A stretch of DNA of 63,598 nt, the filler included, from Collodictyon triciliatum (lineage: Eukaryota), in NCBI GenBank assembly GCA_043381765.1. It is 25 parts of 25 records of this genome, joined end to end, with 100 filler letters (N's around TTAATTAATTAA, not from the genome) between each part and the next. Parts side by side here need not be neighbours in the genome. Positions count along the whole stretch, not along the records: positions 1 to 2,396 come from JBHJMP010008972.1; 24 more parts are not named here. The stretch is one strand, 5' to 3'. Under the pieces are notes generated by a model that saw nothing but the letters and a program-made list of their open reading frames with translations, was not told where the DNA came from and ran no database searches. Positions 1 to 37,026 of the stretch are shown piece after piece. The first letter of the stretch is position 1, and each line of letters opens with the position of its first letter. The position numbers were made by a program, and so were the translations under genes.

Positions 1-840
1 TTTCTTTTTCTTTTCTTTTTCTTTTTCTTTTCTTTTTCTTTTCTTTTTCTTTTCTTTTTCTTTTTCTTTTCTTTTTCTTTTCTTTTTCTTTTTCTTTCTT
101 CTTTTTTCCTTCATTTTTATTTCTTTTTCTTTTTTCTTCTTTTTTCCTTTTCTTTTTTTCTTGTTTATTCTTTTCCTTTCCCTCTCTTCAGTCTCATTCA
201 ACCTGTAAATGGATAGACTTCATTACAAAGCTTGTGACGAACTTGGTTTTACCCCTTTTAAGTCACAACGCTTTTTATACAACGAAAGTGTACCCATATA
301 TAACAGTTTATTGCACAGACAAACATCGCATTAAATCTGGATTGACAAAAGCAGGAACTTTGATGAATCCAAGAAACATCCTGAATAATATAATAATATG
401 ATTAGTATATATTAAGGTTGAAAAATACTGAATAATTTCATTCTTTTCCTATAATCAATTTATATTTTATTTTCCATTATGTAACATTATCGTTAAAATT
501 CAATTACAAACATGCCATTGCCTTGGTTCAGACAGAACCCACCCTGTAAACCTGCCACCAAACATGCATCTCAAAAAAGCAAACTATCCTCACTTGCGGC
601 GGTAATCATGCTGTTTGAGGCCGATATGTTGAATTTCAGTCGCAATGGCTATACGGCTGTCCTTTCGAACTCGCCGACTCGGCTCTCAGTATTTCGTCTC
701 AAATCACTTGTAAAAAAACTTTGCGTGTTTGTTTGCCACAATGCGCACACTTTGAAAGTCTCGGTAGATGCTTGATTCTTCATAATTGATTTTATGCAGT
801 TTTTTTTTATTATTAAATAGACTATGATTAAAATTTTATT

Positions 841-848
841 AAAATTGA
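841..848 (+). promoter_or_regulatory. AAAATTGA octamer, identical to the Mimiviridae early-promoter motif, upstream of the Fanzor-like gene
   Basis: AAAATTGA starts 54 nt upstream of the ATG at 895 in an AT-rich stretch. The octamer is AT-rich and also occurs in LINE tails in this window, so chance is possible. Confidence 0.35.
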
Positions 849-894
849 AAACTCGGTAATTTTCTAAAGGAAAAAGTAAAACAAAGACTTTCAG

Positions 895-1111
895 ATGAAG
901 AAAAGAAAGCGTCTTGAGTCTGAGAATCTAAAGTCTGTAAAACGAGACTATCGAAATGTGAAAGCATCTCTAAAGTTGATTGTAAAGAATGCGGATGACT
1001 ATTACAAAATCAACGATACGGTTTTATTATGTCATAATTTGGTTACTGACATTTATCTGTTTGCAAGATGATACGTATTGAAATCACAGAAGTCCCAACA
1101 ATCAATCAAAT

Positions 1112-1172
<61 letters not shown>

Positions 1173-2157
1173 TAAAATTTAAAGACAGTCGGAATAGTTT
1201 CACAAGATAGACCTGCATTTTTAAAAAACAACAGATATGAGAGATGACATGATGACTTTTTATTTGAATGGTTTTCGATTCCTTTTGTCCCGAAAAGAAC
1301 GCTTTCCGTTGATTGGACTGTCTCGTGTATTACCGTACTTGGCGAAGCAAATGTTAACAGCTTATCATAATGACATTAAGGAATATTTTGTAAAGAGGTT
1401 ACTGCGCTTTATAAATCAAACAGTACCTAAATATGAGAATATTACGGAAGCTATTAAAAAGGCAGATACGAAAGTAAAAAAAAGTCATCTCCAAGAAAAT
1501 CCAAATACCAAAACAAAATAAAGATCGACTATAACGCCTTTGCATCGTATCATTCCCAGCGATATTGTAAAAGCTATCGAATATGACATCAAAGTCAACC
1601 CAAACAAGTGCATTCCATGTCTGATTTACATGAATCGCATTTATGAGGACATTGGACCCAAACTGTTTCGACCAATCCTCATAATGACTACCAATATACC
1701 ATGCTATATTACTTTAGATACTGCATAATTGATAGATCTATTAATTTTATCTGGAAAAACATATTAAATAAGAACATATCAGTATGCAAAGAGACCCTAT
1801 GAGATGAGTTCTTTGAAATGAAGAAGAGGGTCTTTCATCAAAGAGACTACCATTTTAAATACATGATATAAACACACAGCTTGGTGGTGTCATTATTGTT
1901 TGAAAAGAAAGGGATTTCAAATTCAAAAATCCAAGTTAATCAAAGGCTCAAGAATATGTTTATAGATGAGCTTTTCGAAGAGCAGTTATCTTTATTAGCG
2001 AAAAAAACAGTTGGAGTGAACGCAAGCAAGTTTTATTTGGTTTACATTGGATGAGACAGGTAAGAAATTACGTTGCACGGCACACCAAAGAAGACATGAT
2101 AGCAAATCTCTTAAAAATCACAAAATACGCCTGCGCGAGAAAGAAGAGTACAATTAG
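895..2157 (+). pseudogene. Fanzor1-type (eukaryotic/giant-virus TnpB-like RNA-guided nuclease) pseudogene, 3'-truncated after RuvC-I
   Basis: Stitching frames gives MKKRKR...VKASLKLIVKN..KINDTVLLCHNLVTDIYLFAR*YVL, EVPTINQMF, FYLNGFRFLL..VLPYLAKQMLTAYHNDIKEYFVKRLLRFIN, IEYDIKVNPNKCIPCLIYMN..KLFRPILIMTTNIPCYITLDTA*LIDL, YHFKYMI*THSLVVSLLF (the IQTDGxxxSLLF block), FIDEL..KKTVGVNASKFYLVY (RuvC-I VGxDPGK) and DETGKKLRCTAHQRRHDSK. This is the motif order I recognise from Fanzor1 proteins. It has several stops and frameshifts, a 59-nt poly-T at 1113-1171, and no introns. Confidence 0.85.
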
Positions 2158-2300
2158 TCAGGGATATATATGGCAACAGGTTTACAAAGTGCTGTTTCTT
2201 TTGGTCTCAGGACTTTTGAAGAGAATCAGCTGTTTGAGACATTAAGAGTATCTTTTAATCGATTTAGAGACAGGACTGAGTAAACATAATTCATGCACGG

Positions 2301-2396
2301 TTTTTTTTTTTTTATTCTTCCTTTCAACTTTTGTGCAGGACCGAGGGGGGGTGTTGGCTTTGGTTCGCTAGCCATCGTTTGCATGGACGCTACTTG
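2301..2396 (-). mobile_element. 3' end (ORF2 stop, 3'UTR, poly-A) of L1/Tx1-like LINE family A
   Basis: Near-identical to 3128-3219; the poly-T on + is the poly-A tail. Cut by the scaffold end. Confidence 0.85.
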
Positions 2397-2496: not shown

Positions 2497-2555
2497 TTTT
2501 TTTATGAATTTATTCTTCCTTTCAATTTTGTGCAAGACGGTGGGAACGTTGTTGA
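2497..2555 (-). mobile_element. Short diverged LINE 3'-tail related to family A
   Basis: tattcttcctttcaattttgtgcaagac matches the family A terminus tattcttcctttcaacttttgtgcaggac, next to poly-T. Confidence 0.6.
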
Positions 2556-3127
2556 GATATCTATAAATTTATTGAAGGAATTTTCGTATAATAACGCAGA
2601 AGAATCAAACGAATGACCAAAGTTTTTTAGCTACTTAAATCCAGTGAGGTTTCTGATATTTGTTGCTTGCAGGTCCAGACAAAGAATCATGGCCGGTCCT
2701 TTGGTCTATGACATTCCTGCTGCCTTTGTATAATTGAGGAATACCAAAAGGAATACTCTAAAGTATATCCCTGACTCAAGTTTCGAACGATGTTAGAGTA
2801 CGAGCATATCAACACTCACGTCACATCATCTATAGTCATGATCGATAATCACAGACGAGTCTATAAAAATGAATACTCTTTAATATGAATCATATCCAAT
2901 CCGTCTTTTTGAATCATCCCAGTTCCAGTGTCGGAGCTATCGAAATATGGCCGGCTGGTGGTGACGACCAAAAGGGATTCACCCACAGAGGGGGCGTCAC
3001 TAGGAGTCTGTCATCTTCCCTGGTCCGCCGGAGCCCCCAACCAAGACCCCTGCTGAATCTTGAGGCTTTTGTAGAGCAGGAACTAACAGTGCTGCGTTTC
3101 CCAGAGTAAATTTCATTCAAATATGCA

Positions 3128-5052
3128 TTTTTTTTTATTCTTCCTTTCAACTTTTGTGCAGGACCGAGGGGGGGTGTTAGCTTTGGTTCCCTAGACATCG
3201 TTTGCATGGACGCTACTTGGTGGCTGGTTGGCAGAGAAGTAGTCGGTAATCAGGAATTGCATCCTGTGGTTTGGCCTGTAACCTGGGTCTTGTGCTTGCA
3301 TGAGAGAGGCAAGGCGAGGTTTAATATCTTTCTCAGCCTATTTCCACATGTCTCTTCTCACGGGGTCGGAGTAGTAGAGAACGTGCAAGTGGCGAAGAAA
3401 GCTGTTGAGAAAAGCATTTGTATGATGTCATTCAGTCTATTATCAGGAATGGGTGGCTGGTTGTTGACCCTTACTTTGCATGAGTATACGCGCGCTATCC
3501 ACTTAGTCCATAGCAAATGGCCTCGTGTCACTGCCCAGAATGTTTTTGCCTCTGGACGCAGCTGTTGCAGAGGTTTAATTATCGCCTGGATTGGACAAAC
3601 AGCCGCAGCCGTCTTGAGTGTCAGTCGAAGAGTCTCACCGGCTGTTTTGCGTATGGTTTTGAGCGAAGGGACATTGTAAAAAATGTGTGCTCAATGGATT
3701 CATCACGGTGGCTGCAAAGTGTGCATTGTTGGGAGACTTTGCCAGCTTTTGCCGCGCGTGTGCCTATCCATAGCTCCCTATTGGTGATATCAAGCATTAG
3801 AGAGCGGTGATTTGGAAGGAATTGCGGGATTCGTGCTTGTCTCCAGCTCGCGGTGAGCGGGGCGTGGGTGATGCCCAGTGTTTCTCCCCACCGTTGATGT
3901 TTTGACTTTTTGTAGGGTGTTGGTGGCGATATTTTGTATCGAAAGAATTTGGAGTAGACCATAGCCATCGAGAACTGAATAGACTGCGCACCGTTAGACG
4001 AGTGTTCGTTCTTGAGGCGGAAAAACAATGGCGACGGGATGTTGTATGAGAATGGTCTGCGTGAGCGCCATTTTCCTTTGTTATTCAGGACAGCTGTGGT
4101 TGGCTGTGTATCTTGTGCGCGGAATGCAGTGGAGCTTGGCGTTGTGATGTGCGAGCCGTCTTCTTTGAATGAGATTTCTGTGATGGTGGCCGCGTTGCCT
4201 TCGTGAACCTGTTTGGTGATGCAGAAGCCTTTCTGGTTGTCCCAGCATATTTGTGCTGCTGCCAATGGCTCGTTCAGGGGTATTCTCATTTCGCAGTGAG
4301 TATACAGAATCTGCCAACGCGAGAGCAAAGACTCTGGTGTATTTGGAGGTGGTGTGGGATTATTCTTTGTTGCAACTGTGTTATGAAGGGAGAGATGTCT
4401 TGATGACTTGGAAGAAGGTGGCGTACGCTTCACTAGGTAGGCGGTCAGGGCCTGGTGCTTTGCGCTTCGGCATGGACTTGATAGCGCTCCACAATTCGCT
4501 GTCATCAATGTCTTTGACCATGGATTCGGCCTCTCTTTCGTTCGCCACAGAGCAGTTTTTTCTTACCAGCTCGAGAGCGGCACGGTCAAAGTCTCGTTTC
4601 TTCCACACATCGGCGTAGAAGTTTAGGGTGTTGGTTTTGCCAATCTCTTCAGGTGGCAGTGGTTCATTCTCGTCTGACTCTGGCAGTGGAGGGCAGGGCG
4701 TCATTTCTTTTTCTTTACCAAGTCCGAAGAACCATCGGTCGATTTGCTCGTAGTACCTGATGTGTCGTGATTCCCATTTTCGTCTTTCAGCTTCGATGTC
4801 CTCCGATAGCTGTGCAATCAGTTTATCTTCGACCGATACGATTATTATTATTATTATTTTTAAGGCCATCGCTCCATGATGAGGGTTTTGTAGAGGTTGA
4901 CATGAGAACGTCTCTATCTCTTTCGAGTGTCCTCTCTATGTTGCTTTTTTTCTTGAATTCGCTGGATTTCTCGTTGAGCAAGGAGATGAGCTTCTCTTTG
5001 ACAGCCTTCCAGTCAGCGTTGATATTGAGAATGAATTTATTGGATAACACGT
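3128..5052 (-). mobile_element. L1/Tx1-like non-LTR retrotransposon family A; 5'-truncated, RT core internally deleted, decayed
   Basis: The ORF2 linker and RT start (ELWSAIKSMPKRKAPGPDRLPSEAY) are fused near 4385 to post-RT sequence. The C-terminal CCHC finger CTLCSHRDESIEHTF..C follows, then the C-terminus RMQFLITDYFSANQPPSSVHANDV* (stop 3191-3193), a short 3'UTR and poly-A. Confidence 0.9.
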
Positions 5053-5592
5053 AATGTAGATTCTACGAGTGCTCGGTGATTCATTCTGAAATCTTTTATT
5101 ATTATTTTTATTTTTTAAAATAAAAAAAACCCTGTATCTGTCGATAAAACTGGAAACGATGAACCTTGCGGGCTGCTAAAGACAACCACTCCCGCGAACG
5201 GCGCATAATGCGGGGTGAAATATTGCTTCTCTTTGAACGGAATTTGCAATTAACTTTCAATATCCACAGCGGGGTGAAAAATGCGTCAAAATTTAGGACG
5301 AAACCCTTTCTTTTCTTTTCTGTCTGTTCTTTTATCGTTTTATTTGTTTCCTGAAAATAAACTTGTGTCTGTGAGCTCGGTCCGCCTTGGAGTCGCAGCT
5401 CTTTGGGTTGAACGACTTTGACTACTAGAAAATCATTAATTTTAAGAAATCCACTATGGGGAAAGGATTTAATCGTCAACCTATTTTACTGCTTACATGC
5501 CAAAATATAATCTCATTGCATCGGTGGGTTTTTTTTTAATTTAGGAACTATGTACCTCTAGCAGAGTGTTTCTCACCTTTCTGTGGAACACC

Positions 5593-6977
5593 TTATTTTC
5601 CACCCTTCTTTGGCTGTTCCGTCTTCTTGACTGGCTGTTCAGCTGGCTCTTTCGAGTGACCGTCAGGGATATTGAATAGAACTGGGGGCTTGCTTGTGTT
5701 GATGAACGGACTGTCAACGATATAGTAACCCTTGCGTTCAAGTTGAATAATATCGCCTGTCCAGAATAAATTGTATTAAGATGCTTAGTATAGAAATGTA
5801 AATCTATCCAATTATCACATTTTCTCACTTCTGCTTCTGTCTTGATTACTATAACAACTTGACTCAATACATTATTGGTATTTGTTGTTTGTGTTATTAA
5901 GTGTGGGACATTGCTTTAAATAAATATAGAAGTGGACAACGACGAGACCTTTTTGAAGATTGCGGAGGTTGGAGTCACCAATGGCCAAAGTCTAAACAGT
6001 AAGACCAGAGTTAGTGAGGCGAAAATAAATCACGACTTCGAAAAGACCACGTAAGTATGCAGTATTAAAGTGACTCAAGCCTCTTTGCGGCTGCTTGGAT
6101 TGATAAAATTCAAAAAATCGTCTTCTTCTTCCAGTTTCTTCTTTGTCATCAAGTGACCGAAATCAACTAACACAAGCGGCACCGAGTCCTCGATGTCAGC
6201 AACCTATAAATTAAAAATGAATATATATGAAGAGAAATTGAAAGTTGTGCATAAAGCAAAGGATAAGATTAAAGCAGACCCATTGCAGTTTCTTTTTCGT
6301 GTTTTTGACGTTTCCTTCCAGGTTAAGCTTTCCTTGAAGAGAAAGAATCTTTCCACTCTCATCGCGTTTAATCTCAGACACAATGGCATTGCCCCAGTCC
6401 ATCAACGTCACCTGGTCCACCAGCGGTTGATTTTAAACATTCTTTTAAAAGTTGCAATTAAACCGAATAAAAAGAAAAGGACAGAAAATTGAAAGGAAGA
6501 ATAAGAATTAAAAAAAGAAAAAGAAAAGAAGAAAAACCACCTCCTCATTTTGTACGATTTCACGGGCATCCTCTTGATCGAGGAAGATGGTTTTGTAAAA
6601 AACGGTCACTTTGTTGCCAACGTCAGGATTTTTCTTGTGTTTGGGAATGGTTCGGCCCTCGGGTGTTGCGGGTCCGTCCTCCAAGGTGAACGGTACTCTA
6701 CATAATTATGGATGTGTAAAAAAAAAATGTAGAATTTTTTTCGTGGAGTATGAACAAAAATATTGATGTGTAGCTGCAAATAACGAATGAAACACAACTG
6801 ATGAAATATACTTGTCAGATGCTCCCACAGCGGAAAAACGAGGAGCTATTGGGTCAATCAGGCGCTTGTTGATAACCCACAGCTTCTCCCATTCCATCAA
6901 ATTCAGATTCTTTGAGGCACCCTGGACAAGGATGAACTGCTTCATGGCTTCAACCAAAAGTCCACGACGAACAAGCC
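5593..6977 (-). CDS. Cytosolic glutamyl-tRNA synthetase, 3' part (6 exons; 5' end beyond the scaffold)
   Basis: Exons encode GLVRRGLLVEAMKQFILVQGASKNLNLMEWEKLWVINKRLIDPIAPRF, IPKHKKNPDVGNK, VTLMDWGNAIV..KNTKKKLQW, DFGHLMTKKKLEEEDDF, TLAIGDSNLRNLQKG and DIIQLERKGYYIVD..LFNIPDG..GGK* (TAA at 5593-5595). Confidence 0.93.
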
Positions 6978-7227
6978 CTGTATGTAAATGATAGATGTTT
7001 TTTTTCTCTTCAAAGGATTGCAATATGATAAAGATATCTGAATAATTTTTTTTTTTTTTTTTTTTTAGTTTTAAATTTTTTTTTTTAATAAAATAAAAAA
7101 AAAAATTTATTTTTAAAAAGAAAAAAANNNNNNNNNNNNNNNNNNNNNNNNNNNNNNNNNNNNNNNNNNNNTTAATTAATTAANNNNNNNNNNNNNNNNN
7201 NNNNNNNNNNNNNNNNNNNNNNNNNNN

Positions 7228-24829: not shown

Positions 24830-27076
24830 TCTAAAATAACCATCCGTCTGCCATTTTCGCTTTTTAGCAAATGGGGATGAGACTGTGATTAGATTGTATG
24901 AGGAGATGCAAAGAGTATTACCAAGAAGAATAAAACTATCGATTAATAGGTGGTTTCCCTTAAACCGTCTATTAAAAATCGGAATGAATCATTTGTCAAT
25001 CTTAGATAGTTCAAATCAACATTTTTCCCCCTTTATTCGATTGAAAGTGCAGCGAGGTTATCCCATACAAGAGGCGAGATAGCTGCGCATGGTAGAGAGT
25101 AAACGCGAGTAAGAGAAGACACTACCGTGGAGAGGTTGGCGTTGGAAAGAAATCAGTGATAGCGAGTTGGTCAGGTGGGCGTCCCAACTGGTTGATTGAT
25201 TGCGCGGGTAGCAGGGGTTGGATATGCTGTGGGAGATATCGCACGACACATTCCCACATTTCTCTTCGCTTGCAGTCAGAGTAGCGAAGAATGCGAGCGT
25301 GTTTCAGCAGGCTGTTCAGTAAGCTGTATTGCACGAGGCTTTCAAGCCTGGATGCATCGATTTCTCTTTCGGGTGAATTATTGGAGCGAGAGAATGCACG
25401 CGCACATTCCTTGAAAACCCCAGCATATGTCCCCTTGTGAATGTCCAGAGTATTCTAGAGTCGTGGGTCATTTGGTATTGTGGGCCAAAACAGGCTGTCG
25501 GATGCGCTGAATCGGTTTGGAGCATAATCAGGCTCAGAGAGCATCTTGTGGGTTGATTTTGTGACTTTTTGAGCAAGGGAGCACTTCACAAATGTGTGTT
25601 CGATAGAGTCATCTCCACTATGGCACATGGTGCATTCTGGAGAGGTCGTTGCTTCATGGACTACACGCGCACCTATCCGCAGCTCTCTGTTGGAAATATA
25701 TATATATATATATAAGACAGGTGAATCCGTTACAGAAGCCCCTTTTCTGTAAGATAGTTACCAGTGCTTCGCGGTTCGCATAGTCGTATGCTTTCTCCAG
25801 GTCGTAGAAAATCATAGCGCGGGGTGTCCCGCTTACTTGATATTCCATGTACTCTTTGTTGACAACCCAGATGTTTGTGTCGATGTTCCTTCCGTTCATG
25901 AAACCAATCTGCTCTTTGGATATGAGTTTGTCAGCGATGAGTGATATGCGATTTCTGAGTAGCGTCGTAAATATCTTGTAGTCGTTATTCAATAGTGATA
26001 TTGGCTGCCAGTCTGCAAGATTACTCGAGTTTCCTTTTTTTGGTATCTGACGCACCGTGGCTTCTGTATATCCTTGCGGTAGGTCGCCACCAGACATGAT
26101 TCCATTCAGAAAAGTCACTAAGGATGCCTTGACCTCATTAAAGAAAGCAGAGTATATTCCGTTGGGCAGCCTATCTGGTCCTGGCGCCTTTCCGTTGTGT
26201 AGCGACTTGACCGCTTTCCACAATTCGCCTGCATCTATTGGTGCTATCATGCTGGCTGCTTGCGAGGGTGAAGCCTTGGAGCAGTTTGTGGTGATAAGCT
26301 CGAGAGTAGCAGCATCATAGTCTCGCCTTGACCACATCTTTGAGAAGAAGACGTGGGTGTTCTTTTTGTTGTTGCGAGGTAATAAATGATGCATGTCCTC
26401 AGATGGTGTGCAGGACGGATACAAGGTCTTTTCTTTTTCCTTTCCTAGTCCAAAGAACCATTTCTCCATCTGCTCAAAGTCTCGCAAGTATCTCGCTTCC
26501 CATTTTTCGCGGTATTTGTGGATATCTGATGTTAGCTGCTCGGCAAGTTTATCCTCCAAGCTCGCCAGTTTTTCTTTTTGGGTGCGTTTCCACCCCGATG
26601 GTCTACCGGCTGCTTTCATCAGAGCCTCTTTTTCCCTTTCAAGCTTCTTCCGCTCCTCTCCATCCTTATTTTTGAACCAGCTCGATTTTTGGATAAGAAG
26701 AATAGAGAGCTGCTTTAGGATTATTGGCCATCCCGCCTCGATGGGCGCATCACCTGGAGTGTTGAAGTAAGCCCTGAGCTTGTTTTGTATGTCTTGTATC
26801 GACTTGGAGTCATTGTATGTCCTCCAGTCTATATACCTCGCCTGCGAATCACAGCCACTGCCTGAATCGATGTGAGCCAGGATAGCACTGTGGTCGGACA
26901 ACACAGAATAGACTGTTTTAAGTTTCTTGAACCACGCATGCAAGTCCCTTGTGCAGAGGAAGCGATCGATTCTGCTCCACGTGAAGCCGCTTTTTGTATG
27001 TCTTCTGCACGTTGCTCCTAGAGAGTGAGGATTGAGCGTCTTCCAAGGGTCTTGCAGCTTGTGTCTGATTGTCCAG
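24830..27076 (-). mobile_element. L1/Tx1-like LINE family B: AP-endonuclease end, RT N-half, internal deletion, CCHC finger, 3'UTR
   Basis: Endonuclease end WSRIDRFLC..SDHSAIL; RT motifs KAPGPDRLP, IPKKG..WQPISLLNNDYKIF, EQIGFMNGRNI, YDLEKAYD. It jumps at the (TA)n near 25700 to CTMCHSGDDSIEHTFVKC and ends DQLAITDFFPTPTSPR*. Confidence 0.93.
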
Positions 27077-27301: not shown

Positions 27302-28383
27302 GATTTCCTTGATTAGTGTAGGAATCATGACGAACTTATATATTATTGAGCAAGAAATCCGAGAAAAGTTTGGCGACAGGTTCGATGTCGTTGTTGGTAA
27401 TGAGGATAATAACGCTTTTGTTCGTATCAGATGCAGCTTAGTTGATGTAAGCATACAATCAAAGTGATCTTTTAGCAATAATGGCTTTCCAAATGATTTC
27501 ATTTTTATATTTATTCCCAACCATAATTCAAAATAGGAATCATATCTCAATATCCAGAAAAATAATGAAAACTATCAATAAAACACATAATCCATATATT
27601 ATAATATGTATTTAATCAGCAGCAAGGGGTGAGTGATATGGAACAAGAGAAAAATTCTCTTGGGCTCCTAAGAAAAACAGAAAGGGACTTCCTTGATAAA
27701 GTAATCTCAACACCTTCCATGATTCCAATCTACAATACTTTGATTATGGGTGAACGTGCTTCAATTGCCATGTTTGATAACCGTAAAATATGCTCTTTCA
27801 AAAACACAAATAGGTTAAGCTCCTAGGAATTGAGGAGGTCAAAGTTGCTGAGGTGCGAGAGTCGAATGCCATCTCGGATACCTTTACTAGGAAATTCTTT
27901 GATGTTGATGGGCGGCTCAAAAGAGTCAACGAAAAAATAGTGGAAACTTGCGGGTCCAATCTCTTGGCTGCCTTGAACGTTCGTTATGTTGACCGGAACC
28001 GCACAATCAGCAATGAAATTGTAGAAGTCAGCCACGTCCTTGGAATCGAAGCAGCGAGAAAGTTACTCATGCTGGAGCTGAGAAATATATATGGAAGCGA
28101 CAAAATCAACTACCGCCACTTGGCAATTTTGACCGAAGTGATGACACACCGAGGTCATCTCGCAGCTATCACGCATTCAGGAATCAACACAAGCGAGAGC
28201 AGAACTCTGATGAAATCCTCCTTTGAGCAAACCGTGGAGGTCTTGCTGGAAGCTGCAGTGATGTCTGAATGCGACCGCCTTCGAGGCGTGAGTGAAAACA
28301 CCCTTCTCGGGTAACTAGCGCCAATGGGCACAGGCGAGTTTGAGCTCCTTATGTCAGTCAACCAGGTGAAAAGAGCGAAGTAG
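27302..28383 (+). pseudogene. Divergent RNA polymerase II largest-subunit (RPB1-like) C-terminal region; 3 exons, in-frame TAA, no CTD
   Basis: Exons about 27302-27446, 27621-27700 and 27814-28383. Encodes RTISNEIVEVSHVLGIEAARK, INYRHLAILTEVMTHRG and SFEQTVEVLLEAA..LRGVSENTLLG*LAPMGTGEFEL, with TAA (28312-28314) at the conserved Gln. The next stop is TAG at 28381. Confidence 0.75.
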
Positions 28384-34639: not shown

Positions 34640-37026
34640 ATAGACGGATTACTTGAACAAGACATTCCTATCACCGACGATGATTTTTTAGACGACATTG
34701 CAATAATGTTTATAGCCGCACAGGAAGAAGCCGACCTACTTCCGCCAGATGTCAGACAAGCCCTGAACGATTCTATAAAAATATTGAATGAAAAAGTAAC
34801 AGTGTCACCCGATGATATTGATGTAACTTTTACAGAAGAACCACAAGAATCAGACACACTTTTAGCTACACCGGCAAACACACCACGAGGGAACTTAGGT
34901 TTAGCCTCACAATCATACACACAAAGAACATCTGGGTTTGGAACTAGAGTAGTAGGTGACCAAGGGGAAATTGCTAGAAGAGAATTGACTTTTGATGAGC
35001 CAGGTGGCGAATCAAAAGATGAAACAATCAGACGACTACAACAGGAAGTTAATGATCTGAGACAAGAATTAGTAAGAATGCGAGAAGTAGCAAGTGAAGC
35101 TCAACAACTATATGACAAATTATTCTATGATATGATTAGAATACAAGACGTGAACGAGACGGCCCGCAAAATGGACGCCGAGTATATTAGCAAGTTACGA
35201 GTAAAAATGGCAGAGTTAACACCTCGTCGGCCTGGCAAATTTAAACAACCTACTCCGATTTCGCAAGCTCAGGCTGCTACCCAAACCTGGACTCCGCTTC
35301 ATATAATCAGACATCAAGAATATCCTGAAACACCACAGAAAAGTGGGGGTGTAAGGGTAGTAATAACACCCCAAAAACAACTGACAGGGCCGATCGAATC
35401 AGGCGCATCAGAACAAACAGCTTACACACGAAAAGCGTTTTCGCCTAGACCCCCATTAGCTCCTGCTACCCCTGTACGTGTGTTTCCACCAGAAAAAAGT
35501 CCAGCAGCCCAAGAATTAATAGACAATTCAAAAGCCTTGACTGTCAGAATATCTCAGGTGACCAGAAATCTAGCAATGGCCAGAAGTATGACCCCGGGTA
35601 GATTAACACAAGGCGATTTAATGGGCGCCCAGCAGCTGTACATTGATCAACTCAAAAATGAATTATTAGAATTAAGAGGACAAGTAAAAGATCATCGATT
35701 TGCTATTCGAGACGTAGACAGACCTGAAGCGCAGAATCAAGTCGCACAAACTAGAAGTAATTTCCTGGCCCTTGAAGATAATCGTGCTGCTAGAGTTCAA
35801 GCCTTACAAAATGATGTAATTAACACACAATTAGCTCTCATTGAAAGACGAGGCGATTTAACTGATGAAGGCAATCAGGAACTTAATAATTTAGAGAAGG
35901 CACTAAATGCAGCAGCCAGCGACTTGGTTAAACTTGAAAAGCTGAGACTACAACAATTGGAATTTTTTATGTCTCTCGATCAAGAGCGACAAGAGCAAAT
36001 CGAAGCACTCAAAGGAGCCGCTCCAAAAGCCCCAAGTAGACTAGCCCAGGAAGCAGCTAAAAGAGCAGCTGAACAGGAAAGAAGAAATGTAGAACTGGTT
36101 CAAGAAAAAGCAAAGTTAGAGAAACAATTGGCTGCGCTTCAAGCACAACAACAACAAGCACAAGCTCAACCGTCAAGCACAGACCCTGATGAACTTAGAC
36201 GACAACAAGAATTACTCGCACAACAAAATGAACAGCTAAGAGACCTACAAAGACAACTAAATGAAAAAGAAGTTCAACTTAATGATGGAGCTGCCAAAGA
36301 AAGACAATTACAAGCCGAATTAGAAGCAGCTAAAGCCGCAGAAGAAGCAGCTAAAGCCGCACCCAAGGCCACACCCAAAAGACTGAAACAAGCAATCAAC
36401 CGCGCTAACGAGGAACAAACCAGAAACCAAGAGCTTCGACAACAGATTGAAGAAGTAGGTAGAGCAAGACAAGAAGCAGAAAACAAACTTGCAGCTGAAA
36501 GACAAAGGCAAGCTGAAAAACCTGTGACAGGTAAAACTCCAGAGAAAAAACAAGAAAATCAAGTTAAACGTGAACAAATTATTAATACTCTAGAAAATAA
36601 ACTTGATCAACAAGAGCGACGATATCAGAGAACGATAGCTCGATTAGAACAAAGTAATCTTGACCTTGTGCGTGAATCAGACAAGGCACTTCAACAATTA
36701 CAAGCAGACAGGGAAAAAGATGCTCAGACCATACGCAATTTAATCGCACAAACACAGGCACAGGGAAACACGATTCAATTCCAAGCCCGAGAAGCACAAG
36801 AACGAGAACAAGAACAGCAGAGACTTGTCCAGGAAAATATTGACCTACAAGCAAATATAGAAAGACTGAGAGCAGAAAAAAGAGCTGCATCCAGAGCGGG
36901 CAGCGCAGCAACAACTCCTAGACAAACGCAAAATAATCCTCTTGGTAGTAATATGGGATCACGTTCACAACAATCATTTACTGCTTCTCAACGCGGCGCA
37001 GGTATCAATCCAACACCCTCGTTTGT
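34640..37026 (+). CDS. Large intronless Q/E/A/R-rich coiled-coil protein of unknown function, open at both scaffold ends
   Basis: A single uninterrupted frame spans the whole scaffold, with A-ending codon bias, heptad-like segments and many S/T-P-x-K/R motifs. Confidence 0.75.

Follow-up and report, generated by a model that had tools for sequence, protein, structure and literature searches.

Evidence for a dead, 3'-truncated Fanzor1 gene copy from a multi-copy family

Fanzor1 genes are already on record from giant viruses and, among cellular organisms, from protists, fungi, algae and some animals (PMC3627910 Table 1, PMC10432273 and PMC10530073), and the last source gives 3655 unique Fanzors with up to 122 copies per genome. 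Fanzor families typically comprise many copies, decayed ones among them; for example, CMe-1A is described in about 150 copies, with about 80% identity to their consensus (PMC3627910 section 12). Bao and Jurka give the Fanzor signature as D...[TS][TS]..C4 zinc finger..RD (PMC3627910), describe mariner elements both with two genes (PGv-1, PUl-1) and with Fanzor only (PUl-4) (PMC3627910 section 7), and place viral and cellular Fanzors intermingled on the tree (PMC3627910 section 16).

The locus described here follows the same colinear order as the solved Fanzor1 proteins GtFz1 (9cer), SpuFz1 (8gkh, 9ceu) and PpFz1 (9cf0), from an N-terminal REC/WED part through T-D-G to RuvC-I, and differs from them in that it is a pseudogene without the C-terminal 192 codons. 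Its intact homologue P0004 has the [TS][TS]-C4 zinc finger-RD tail and the fold (modelled for P0004) in common with the solved proteins, at about 18-21% identity over the structural alignments.

The relic and its genomic setting

The stretch of DNA analysed (the window) is 63,598 bases long and comprises 25 short contigs, mostly of ~2.39 kb, with 24 identical joints, each made of 44 N, TTAATTAATTAA and 44 N. The relic lies in contig 1 (window 1-2396), and we are highly confident that 895-2300 on the plus strand is one colinear pseudogene, the dead and 3'-truncated remnant of a Fanzor1 gene. The features, in window positions, are:

1-159, no strand assigned: polypyrimidine (CT-rich) microsatellite at the contig start, in runs 1-110 and 120-159
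505-894 (left limit approximate), plus strand: 5' non-coding part of the element, common to the related copies in runs X2 and X5
895-2300, plus strand: very probable Fanzor1 pseudogene, equivalent to residues 1-456 of the 648-aa P0004, from tblastn, frameshift-aware alignment, profile HMM and PDB comparison
895-921, plus strand: N-terminal basic motif M-K-K-R-K-R, from translation, with the same start in P0003, P0004 and the viral L084 ORF
1113-1171, plus strand: 59-nt poly-T tract, which replaces ~five codons (F-F-L-Y-A) of relatives
1869-1880, plus strand: decayed (Q/E)-T-D-G block, now stop-T-H-S (codons TAA ACA CAC AGC)
2010-2030, plus strand: RuvC-I motif V-G-V-N-A-S-K (GTT GGA GTG AAC GCA AGC AAG)
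2301-2396, minus strand: 3' end of a non-LTR retrotransposon, its 13-nt poly(A) tail adjoining the relic, running to the contig end
2742-2840, plus strand, next contig: possible, weak trace of another Fanzor relic, a scrap of 33 codons (residues 473-505)

Under the standard code the relic is divided into five plus-strand ORFs of at least 40 aa (895-1071, 1237-1521, 1540-1728, 1881-2054 and 2051-2245). The preliminary description had proposed one colinear protein split into three ORFs; the colinearity is upheld by tblastn and the profile HMM, and the count is corrected to five pieces with five frameshifts. A word-indexed protein search with the longest read-through piece (P0001, window 1237-1797, stops as X) recovered five longer proteins, including P0003 (331 aa, 55% identical) and P0004 (53%), the intact 648-aa metagenomic homologue which we use as the main reference protein. 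When searched against the contig by tblastn, P0004 matched 895-2253 with its residues 1-442 in colinear order (E 2e-102) and 2255-2296 with residues 443-456 in a second segment, and the frameshift-aware alignment of the relic to P0004 contained 254 identical codons among 457 aligned. A profile HMM of 35 full-length relatives, from which the window sequence was left out, matched frame 1 over 895-2154 (E 5.9e-57) and frame 3 over 1752-2069 (profile positions 273-383, with TDG and RuvC-I; E 8.6e-18), and no minus frame passed at the sequence level (E 6 each). Judged by these searches, the homology of the relic lies far beyond chance. The earlier proposal of a dead Fanzor1 relic is thereby borne out, together with a match of P0001 to GtFz1 (E 3.1e-8), five frameshifts and at least seven stops; of the span first given, 895-2157, the start is retained and the end is moved, with homology continuing to ~2300.

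No Pfam model of any kind, Fanzor and TnpB models included (local copy, without PF26935), matched the five ORF pieces or the read-through pieces; the precomputed label of the relatives is PF26935 (DUF8286). Neither tblastn nor blastn found a second copy within the 63.6-kb window. The possible scrap in the next contig has an alignment score of 55, where 40 shuffled sequences averaged 33.2 (sd 4.9) and reached at most 45, and a tblastn E of 0.17 over the whole window.

The window is eukaryotic DNA. Besides retrotransposons, it encodes a protein kinase and a cation-efflux protein, together with fragments of an actin-like protein and of RPB1. As to the host lineage, the search for RNA markers gave no match, an Atlas search with the cation-efflux protein returned nothing more specific than 'Eukaryota', and the RPB1 fragment reached no more than 53% identity to its long relatives, which were from plants, a red alga, Naegleria and unnamed metagenome proteins. 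Host ORFs as long as 790, 443 and 426 codons can be read through in the window under the standard code, and an RVT_1 ORF at 25654-26940 (Pfam E 8.2e-11) is of the same kind as a zf-RVT retrotransposon ORF found in the contig next to the relic. Polypyrimidine/polypurine runs of at least 40 nt occur in 14 of the 25 contigs, contig 1 included, and the CT-rich run at its start is a signature of the host genome that lies outside the Fanzor element. Contig 1 has both these runs and the retrotransposon tail in common with other contigs, which ties it to their genome.

Lesions and the retrotransposon junction

The frameshift-aware alignment places five frameshifts in the relic, near 1087, 1230, 1765, 2049 and 2254. 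In-frame stops number at least seven, with all three stop codons represented: TGA at 1069 (Cys in P0004), TAA at 1519, TAA at 1726 (Cys in P0004), TGA at 1800 (Trp in P0004), TAA at 1869 (Glu in P0004, Gln in P0003), TAG at 2155 (Glu in P0004), and one further stop directly past the poly-T tract, which is itself a frame-breaking homopolymer expansion. The codons quoted for the T-D-G and RuvC-I blocks in the preliminary description are present as given, and its statement that the RuvC-I Asp is replaced by Asn also stands: the relic has AAC at 2019-2021 and, directly after it, Ala-Ser for Pro-Gly. All 35 relatives have the Asp (D364) and the P365 that follows it. Also invariant in these relatives are T312, E555, S559, R603, D604, N606 and N610, and conservation is 90% or higher at D313, G314, C565, C587 and C590; the intact P0004 carries E555, T558, S559, C565, C587, C590, R603 and D604. 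The conserved residues of the relatives are consistent with the D...[TS][TS]..C4..RD signature. The RuvC-I motif of the relic is recognisable yet inactivated, and the copy is evidently dead, because it combines five frameshifts, stops of all three kinds, the poly-T expansion and the change of the RuvC-I Asp to Asn.

At its other end the relic opens with M-K-K-R-K-R, which resembles a nuclear localisation signal and may function as one by analogy with the N-terminal signals present in about 60% of Fanzors (PMC10530073).

Homology stops at ~2300 (...S-C-T-V), and the plus strand then continues with T13 from 2301. The sequence beyond, 2305-2396, has a 96.7% identical counterpart at 3128-3219 in the next contig, where this tail stretch closely follows the 3' end of a minus-strand ORF with zf-RVT (Pfam E 8.9e-5). 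Read on the minus strand, the stretch that adjoins the relic is an untranslated 3' end closing in the poly(A) tail. The tail motif is found at 2314, 2512, 3137, 54244 and 6489, and is common to contig 1 and two other contigs. A non-LTR retrotransposon thus inserted after codon 456, with the contig ending inside it at 2396. RuvC-II/III, the zinc finger and the omegaRNA had been described as missing and they are indeed absent, because of the retrotransposon insertion at ~2300 and the assembly break that follows it, so their absence is not evidence of an intragenic loss. Similarly, no C-terminal [TS][TS]-x-x-C4 zinc finger-RD was found in the window: homology reaches only residue 456 of 648, and elsewhere there is just the weak 33-codon scrap.

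Assignment to Fanzor1 and giant-virus relatives

Against PDB sequences the relic piece P0001 matched Guillardia theta Fanzor1 over 170 residues, at the E-value given above, and Parasitella Fanzor1 (E 5.8e-4), and the RuvC-I piece alone (P0002, 81 aa) gave no Fanzor, with chance matches at E>1. The intact P0004 matched GtFz1 (E 2.1e-28), PpFz1 (E 2.7e-24) and SpuFz1 (E 3.7e-23), with no Fanzor2 chain at E<=0.01. The structure comparison was run on an AlphaFold2 model of this intact homologue, not of the relic (35-sequence alignment; pLDDT 84.4, pTM 0.81), and agrees with the earlier proposal: the top seven PDB matches found by Foldseek are all Fanzor1, with SpuFz at E 1.8e-28, TMq 0.74 and TMt 0.79. 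Fanzor2 (ApmFz2, 9b0l) and TnpB (ISDra2, 8h1j) have RuvC core and zinc-finger nuclease ancestry in common with the family of the relic, but they lack the large N-terminal REC part present in it and give weak fold matches to P0004 (TM 0.20-0.32): mimivirus ApmFz2 is at rank 19 (E 3.8e-5, TM 0.23) and ISDra2 TnpB at rank 33 (E 2.6e-4). Membership of Fanzor2 was rejected on this rank and TM and on the lack of a Fanzor2 sequence match in the PDB at the above threshold.

By sequence, the relic protein can be placed in a large, known Fanzor1 clade. HMMER against 1.84 billion representatives returned 3147 relatives among these 50%-identity representatives at E<=1e-3, of which 537 were at E<=1e-30. 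The suggestion that the family is possibly unreported is therefore not sustained, as the clade is very large and protist Fanzor1 genes are already in print (PMC10432273 and PMC3627910 Table 1).

The closest relatives with known context are giant-virus mariner-type Fanzor1 elements. The Atlas clusters nearest to P0004 are 92-100% viral (Nucleocytoviricota), and outside its own subfamily P0004 shares no more than 46-48% identity with any protein. One relative, P0005, is 38-39% identical to the window piece, and 309 of its 312 matched IMG/VR stretches were confirmed, many of them in giant-virus MAGs; the best representative, P0012, is 45-48% identical to P0004 and has five loci among 42 matched IMG/VR stretches. 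The P0012-type viral elements and the window family have the N-terminal basic motif and the strand following it in common. Two loci, L082 and L084, contain a common 3.3-kb element, bounded by ~50-nt terminal inverted repeats, in which a 343-aa DDE_3 (IS630/Tc1-mariner) transposase (Pfam E 1.5e-15) lies opposite the Fanzor1 ORF. Their terminal inverted repeats and IS630/Tc1-mariner DDE transposase match the architecture of PGv-1 and PUl-1, which were compared by description only. The window family differs from PGv-1-type elements, as there is no transposase in the window and the family appears to be single-ORF and ~2.6 kb. Direct scans with P0004 gave one locus only in the metagenome collection (JGI), at 21% identity, no relative in IMG/VR and no locus in prokaryote genomes.

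Related copies, element architecture and history

None of the public sequencing runs contained half of the words of the stretch. We compared the window with read contigs of four runs, two of which, X2 and X5, represent two organisms from one study, possibly not of the window's species. X2 yielded 256 contig pieces (19 at >=99% identity, 70 at 95-99%, 101 at 90-95% and 66 at <90%) and X5 yielded 259 (9, 69, 99 and 82 in the same classes); together they cover 29 of the 30 bins over 480-2300, the sole empty bin being that of the poly-T (1090-1150). The Fanzor1 family is multi-copy, because each of the two organisms has about 250 pieces at 85-99% identity, whose codons are CAA and GAC at the sites of TAA and AAC in the window. 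At 1869 every covering contig has T>C (17 of 17 in X2, 13 of 13 in X5), in agreement with the earlier view that this TAA is a single base change from a Gln codon. Both covering contigs in each organism have A>G at 2019 (AAC to GAC) and A>G at 2025 (AGC to GGC), so related copies elsewhere, in the four contigs that cover this site, have an intact Asp codon. The restoration of the motif to VGVDPGK was right in its Asp codon and not in its exact form, since the RuvC-I motif of the X2 and X5 copies is V-G-M-D-A-G-K. A GG insertion after 2047 is present in one X2 contig (depth 10.2/17.3) and two X5 contigs (57.9/57.9), and one base fewer at 2253 in five X2 contigs (100.4/110.9) and four X5 contigs (84.2/186.6). 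At least five lesions of the relic, at 1869, 2019, 2025, after 2047 and at 2253, are therefore private to the window copy.

In the other two runs, a freshwater metagenome (X1) contains two 151-nt contigs identical to window 1780-1930 and 1928-2078, lesions included (depth 2), and a lake-water metagenome (X4) contains one contig identical to window 929-1079 (depth 2). These contigs speak independently against assembly error as the source of the lesions, and the identities in both metagenomes are a weak hint of a freshwater habitat.

Upstream of the ATG, X2 and X5 contigs cover 518-894, with loose ends at 502-505 and a depth peak at 541-662; some copies skip from 689 to 860. As the related copies extend over this upstream stretch too, ~390 nt of 5' sequence is a conserved part of the element. 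Rfam gave no match at either the gathering or the E-value threshold, the 5' part included, and there was no folding signal at 505-700 on either strand (z -0.15, +0.22). No transposase remnant was found in the window by tblastn with a viral DDE transposase (best E 6.1), and the inverted repeats in contig 1 are only low-complexity or weak pairs; no element end, TIR, TSD or omegaRNA was found in this contig. P0004 lies on a contig of 2610 nt and P0010 on one of 2597 nt. From these contig sizes and the read cover, in which no element is complete, we infer that the family is probably a single-ORF, transposase-less element of ~2.6 kb (390 + 1947 + about 270 nt).

The ancestral element, as the family suggests, would have been of this transposase-less, single-ORF kind, with the conserved 5' leader of ~390 nt, a 648-codon ORF with a basic, NLS-like start, and a short 3' part, the source of the omegaRNA in Fanzors. 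The protein of the element would have acted as an omegaRNA-guided RuvC endonuclease, cutting DNA beside a target-adjacent motif and so aiding persistence of the element. The window copy would then have drifted neutrally, accumulating frameshifts, stops and the poly-T expansion and losing the catalytic Asp, with no remaining function, and the non-LTR retrotransposon would have inserted after codon 456 later, the assembly breaking inside that repeat.

Three other readings were weighed against this history. The gene might be alive and only seemingly broken, with stops read as sense codons, with splicing or with assembly errors; four of its stops are TAA, homopolymer tracts such as the 59 T are error-prone and the contigs are short. 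However, TGA, TAA and TAG are all in frame alongside five frameshifts, and an alternative genetic code was rejected on this presence of all three kinds of stop and on the long host ORFs open under the standard code. The substitution of the invariant D364 and P365 and the conserved D313, the CAA at 1869 in relatives, the two freshwater-metagenome contigs identical over 1780-2078 with lesions included, and the replacement of the last 192 codons by the retrotransposon tail speak against it likewise, and we regard a living gene as extremely improbable. That the contig derives from a giant-virus genome, endogenised or contaminating, and is not a host-resident transposon copy, is somewhat less remote and still very unlikely. 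It would accord with the viral share of the Atlas clusters nearest to P0004, with the occurrence of P0005 and P0012 relatives in giant-virus MAG contigs (309/312 and 5/42 stretches), and with the RPB1 fragment on another contig, which is <=53% identical to any long relative and has a best match with intein domains. Yet the retrotransposon that breaks off the relic is also present in other contigs, beside RT-type ORFs, the genome-wide polypyrimidine/polypurine runs occur in contig 1 as well as in the RPB1 contig, the copies amount to about 250 pieces in each of X2 and X5, contig 1 contains no viral gene or mariner transposase, and P0004 has no IMG/VR relative.

We also consider it unlikely, though less so than a viral origin of the contig, that the family is an autonomous mariner-type two-gene transposon of which the window copy merely lost the transposase gene. 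The absence of transposase similarity from the window, the same ~390-nt upstream region in the X2 and X5 copies as in the window, and the contigs of only 2.6 kb that carry the intact homologue all point away from such an element, whilst the closest relatives with DNA (L082, L084) are 3.3-kb TIR elements with DDE_3 opposite the Fanzor1 ORF, and both two-gene and Fanzor-only mariner elements are known (PMC3627910 section 7). Returning to the transposase-less family, we suggest tentatively, as a possibility we do not favour strongly, that it is a high-copy Fanzor1 family with elements of ~2.6 kb, sister to the giant-virus mariner-Fanzor1 elements, in a eukaryote lineage that is poorly sampled and probably lives in freshwater. 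Virus and host would then have exchanged such an element, which later amplified in the host, and some X2 and X5 copies are perhaps intact and active with their own omegaRNA.

The host species may already be included in the published Fanzor censuses (Saito 2023, Jiang 2023). By itself the relic carries little weight, as dead Fanzor copies are common. It serves as a pointer to an abundant Fanzor1 subfamily in its source genome and in two related organisms; the kinship of this subfamily with giant-virus mariner-Fanzor1 is a lead for gene flow between viruses and hosts, and the subfamily, being divergent, is a lead toward intact pairs of nuclease and omegaRNA.

Contig structure and retrotransposon copies

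The window (1-63598) consists of 25 artificially joined contigs, most of them 2.35-2.40 kb and one of 4.6 kb, with 24 linkers between them (each N44-TTAATTAATTAA-N44), and no feature is valid across these linkers. Long polypyrimidine/polypurine microsatellites of at least 40 nt, with CTTTT-like units, occur in 14 of the 25 contigs (for example at 1-110, 40519-40683, 51666-51930 and 61695-61824). These tracts are frequently sited at contig ends, and they probably cause breaks in the assembly and ORF interruptions, e.g. in the cation-efflux gene at 40371-41702 (minus strand).

We found a non-LTR retrotransposon family at 2497-7127 and 24687-27076, whose conserved 3' tail terminates in poly(A), and one copy of which truncated the Fanzor relic, a dead Fanzor1 pseudogene on contig 1.

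Features of the non-LTR retrotransposon family
3621-4505, minus strand, zf-RVT domain (E 8.9e-5)
25654-26940, minus strand, RVT_1 domain (E 8.2e-11)
2314, 2512, 3137 and 54244, plus strand, and 6489, minus strand, tail motif

Possible further traces of the Fanzor element

At 2742-2840 (plus strand), 33 codons resemble residues 473-505 of P0004, an intact metagenomic homologue of the relic, and these residues lie just past the point at which the contig 1 relic ends. The alignment scored 55 against a mean of 33.2 and a maximum of 45 in 40 shuffles, with a tblastn E of only 0.17 across the whole window; these codons may be what is left of a second Fanzor relic. Within 518-894, the summed depth of contigs from sequencing runs X2 and X5 at 541-662 was about twice that across the Fanzor1 ORF, and some related copies in these runs join 689 straight to 860. 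A long terminal repeat carried at each end of the element, or derivatives lacking the ORF, could account for this excess and these joins.

Giant viruses and the other genes

Two IMG/VR giant-virus contigs carry a mariner-type element in which a Fanzor1 ORF accompanies a DDE_3 transposase on the minus strand.

L084 3620-6970 and L082 3620-6952, TIR-bounded mariner-type element, 3.3 kb

Giant-virus MAGs are very rich in Fanzor1 of the type of P0005, a relative of the window piece (309 of 312 matched stretches confirmed; 84-92% identity among the 80 matches listed).

Other genes of the window
27814-28311, plus strand, RPB1 domain-5 fragment (Pfam E 3.4e-21)
34706-37026, plus strand, Gln/Glu-rich, coiled-coil-like ORF of 790 codons
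50624-51106, plus strand, divergent actin-like fragment (Pfam Actin E 9.7e-21)

The 790-codon ORF spans its whole contig, continues off the contig end and has no Pfam match. The RPB1 fragment shares at most 53% identity with any long relative, and its best match contains intein domains. The RPB1 and actin-like fragments point either to a poorly sampled or fast-evolving host lineage or to a giant-virus origin of these contigs.
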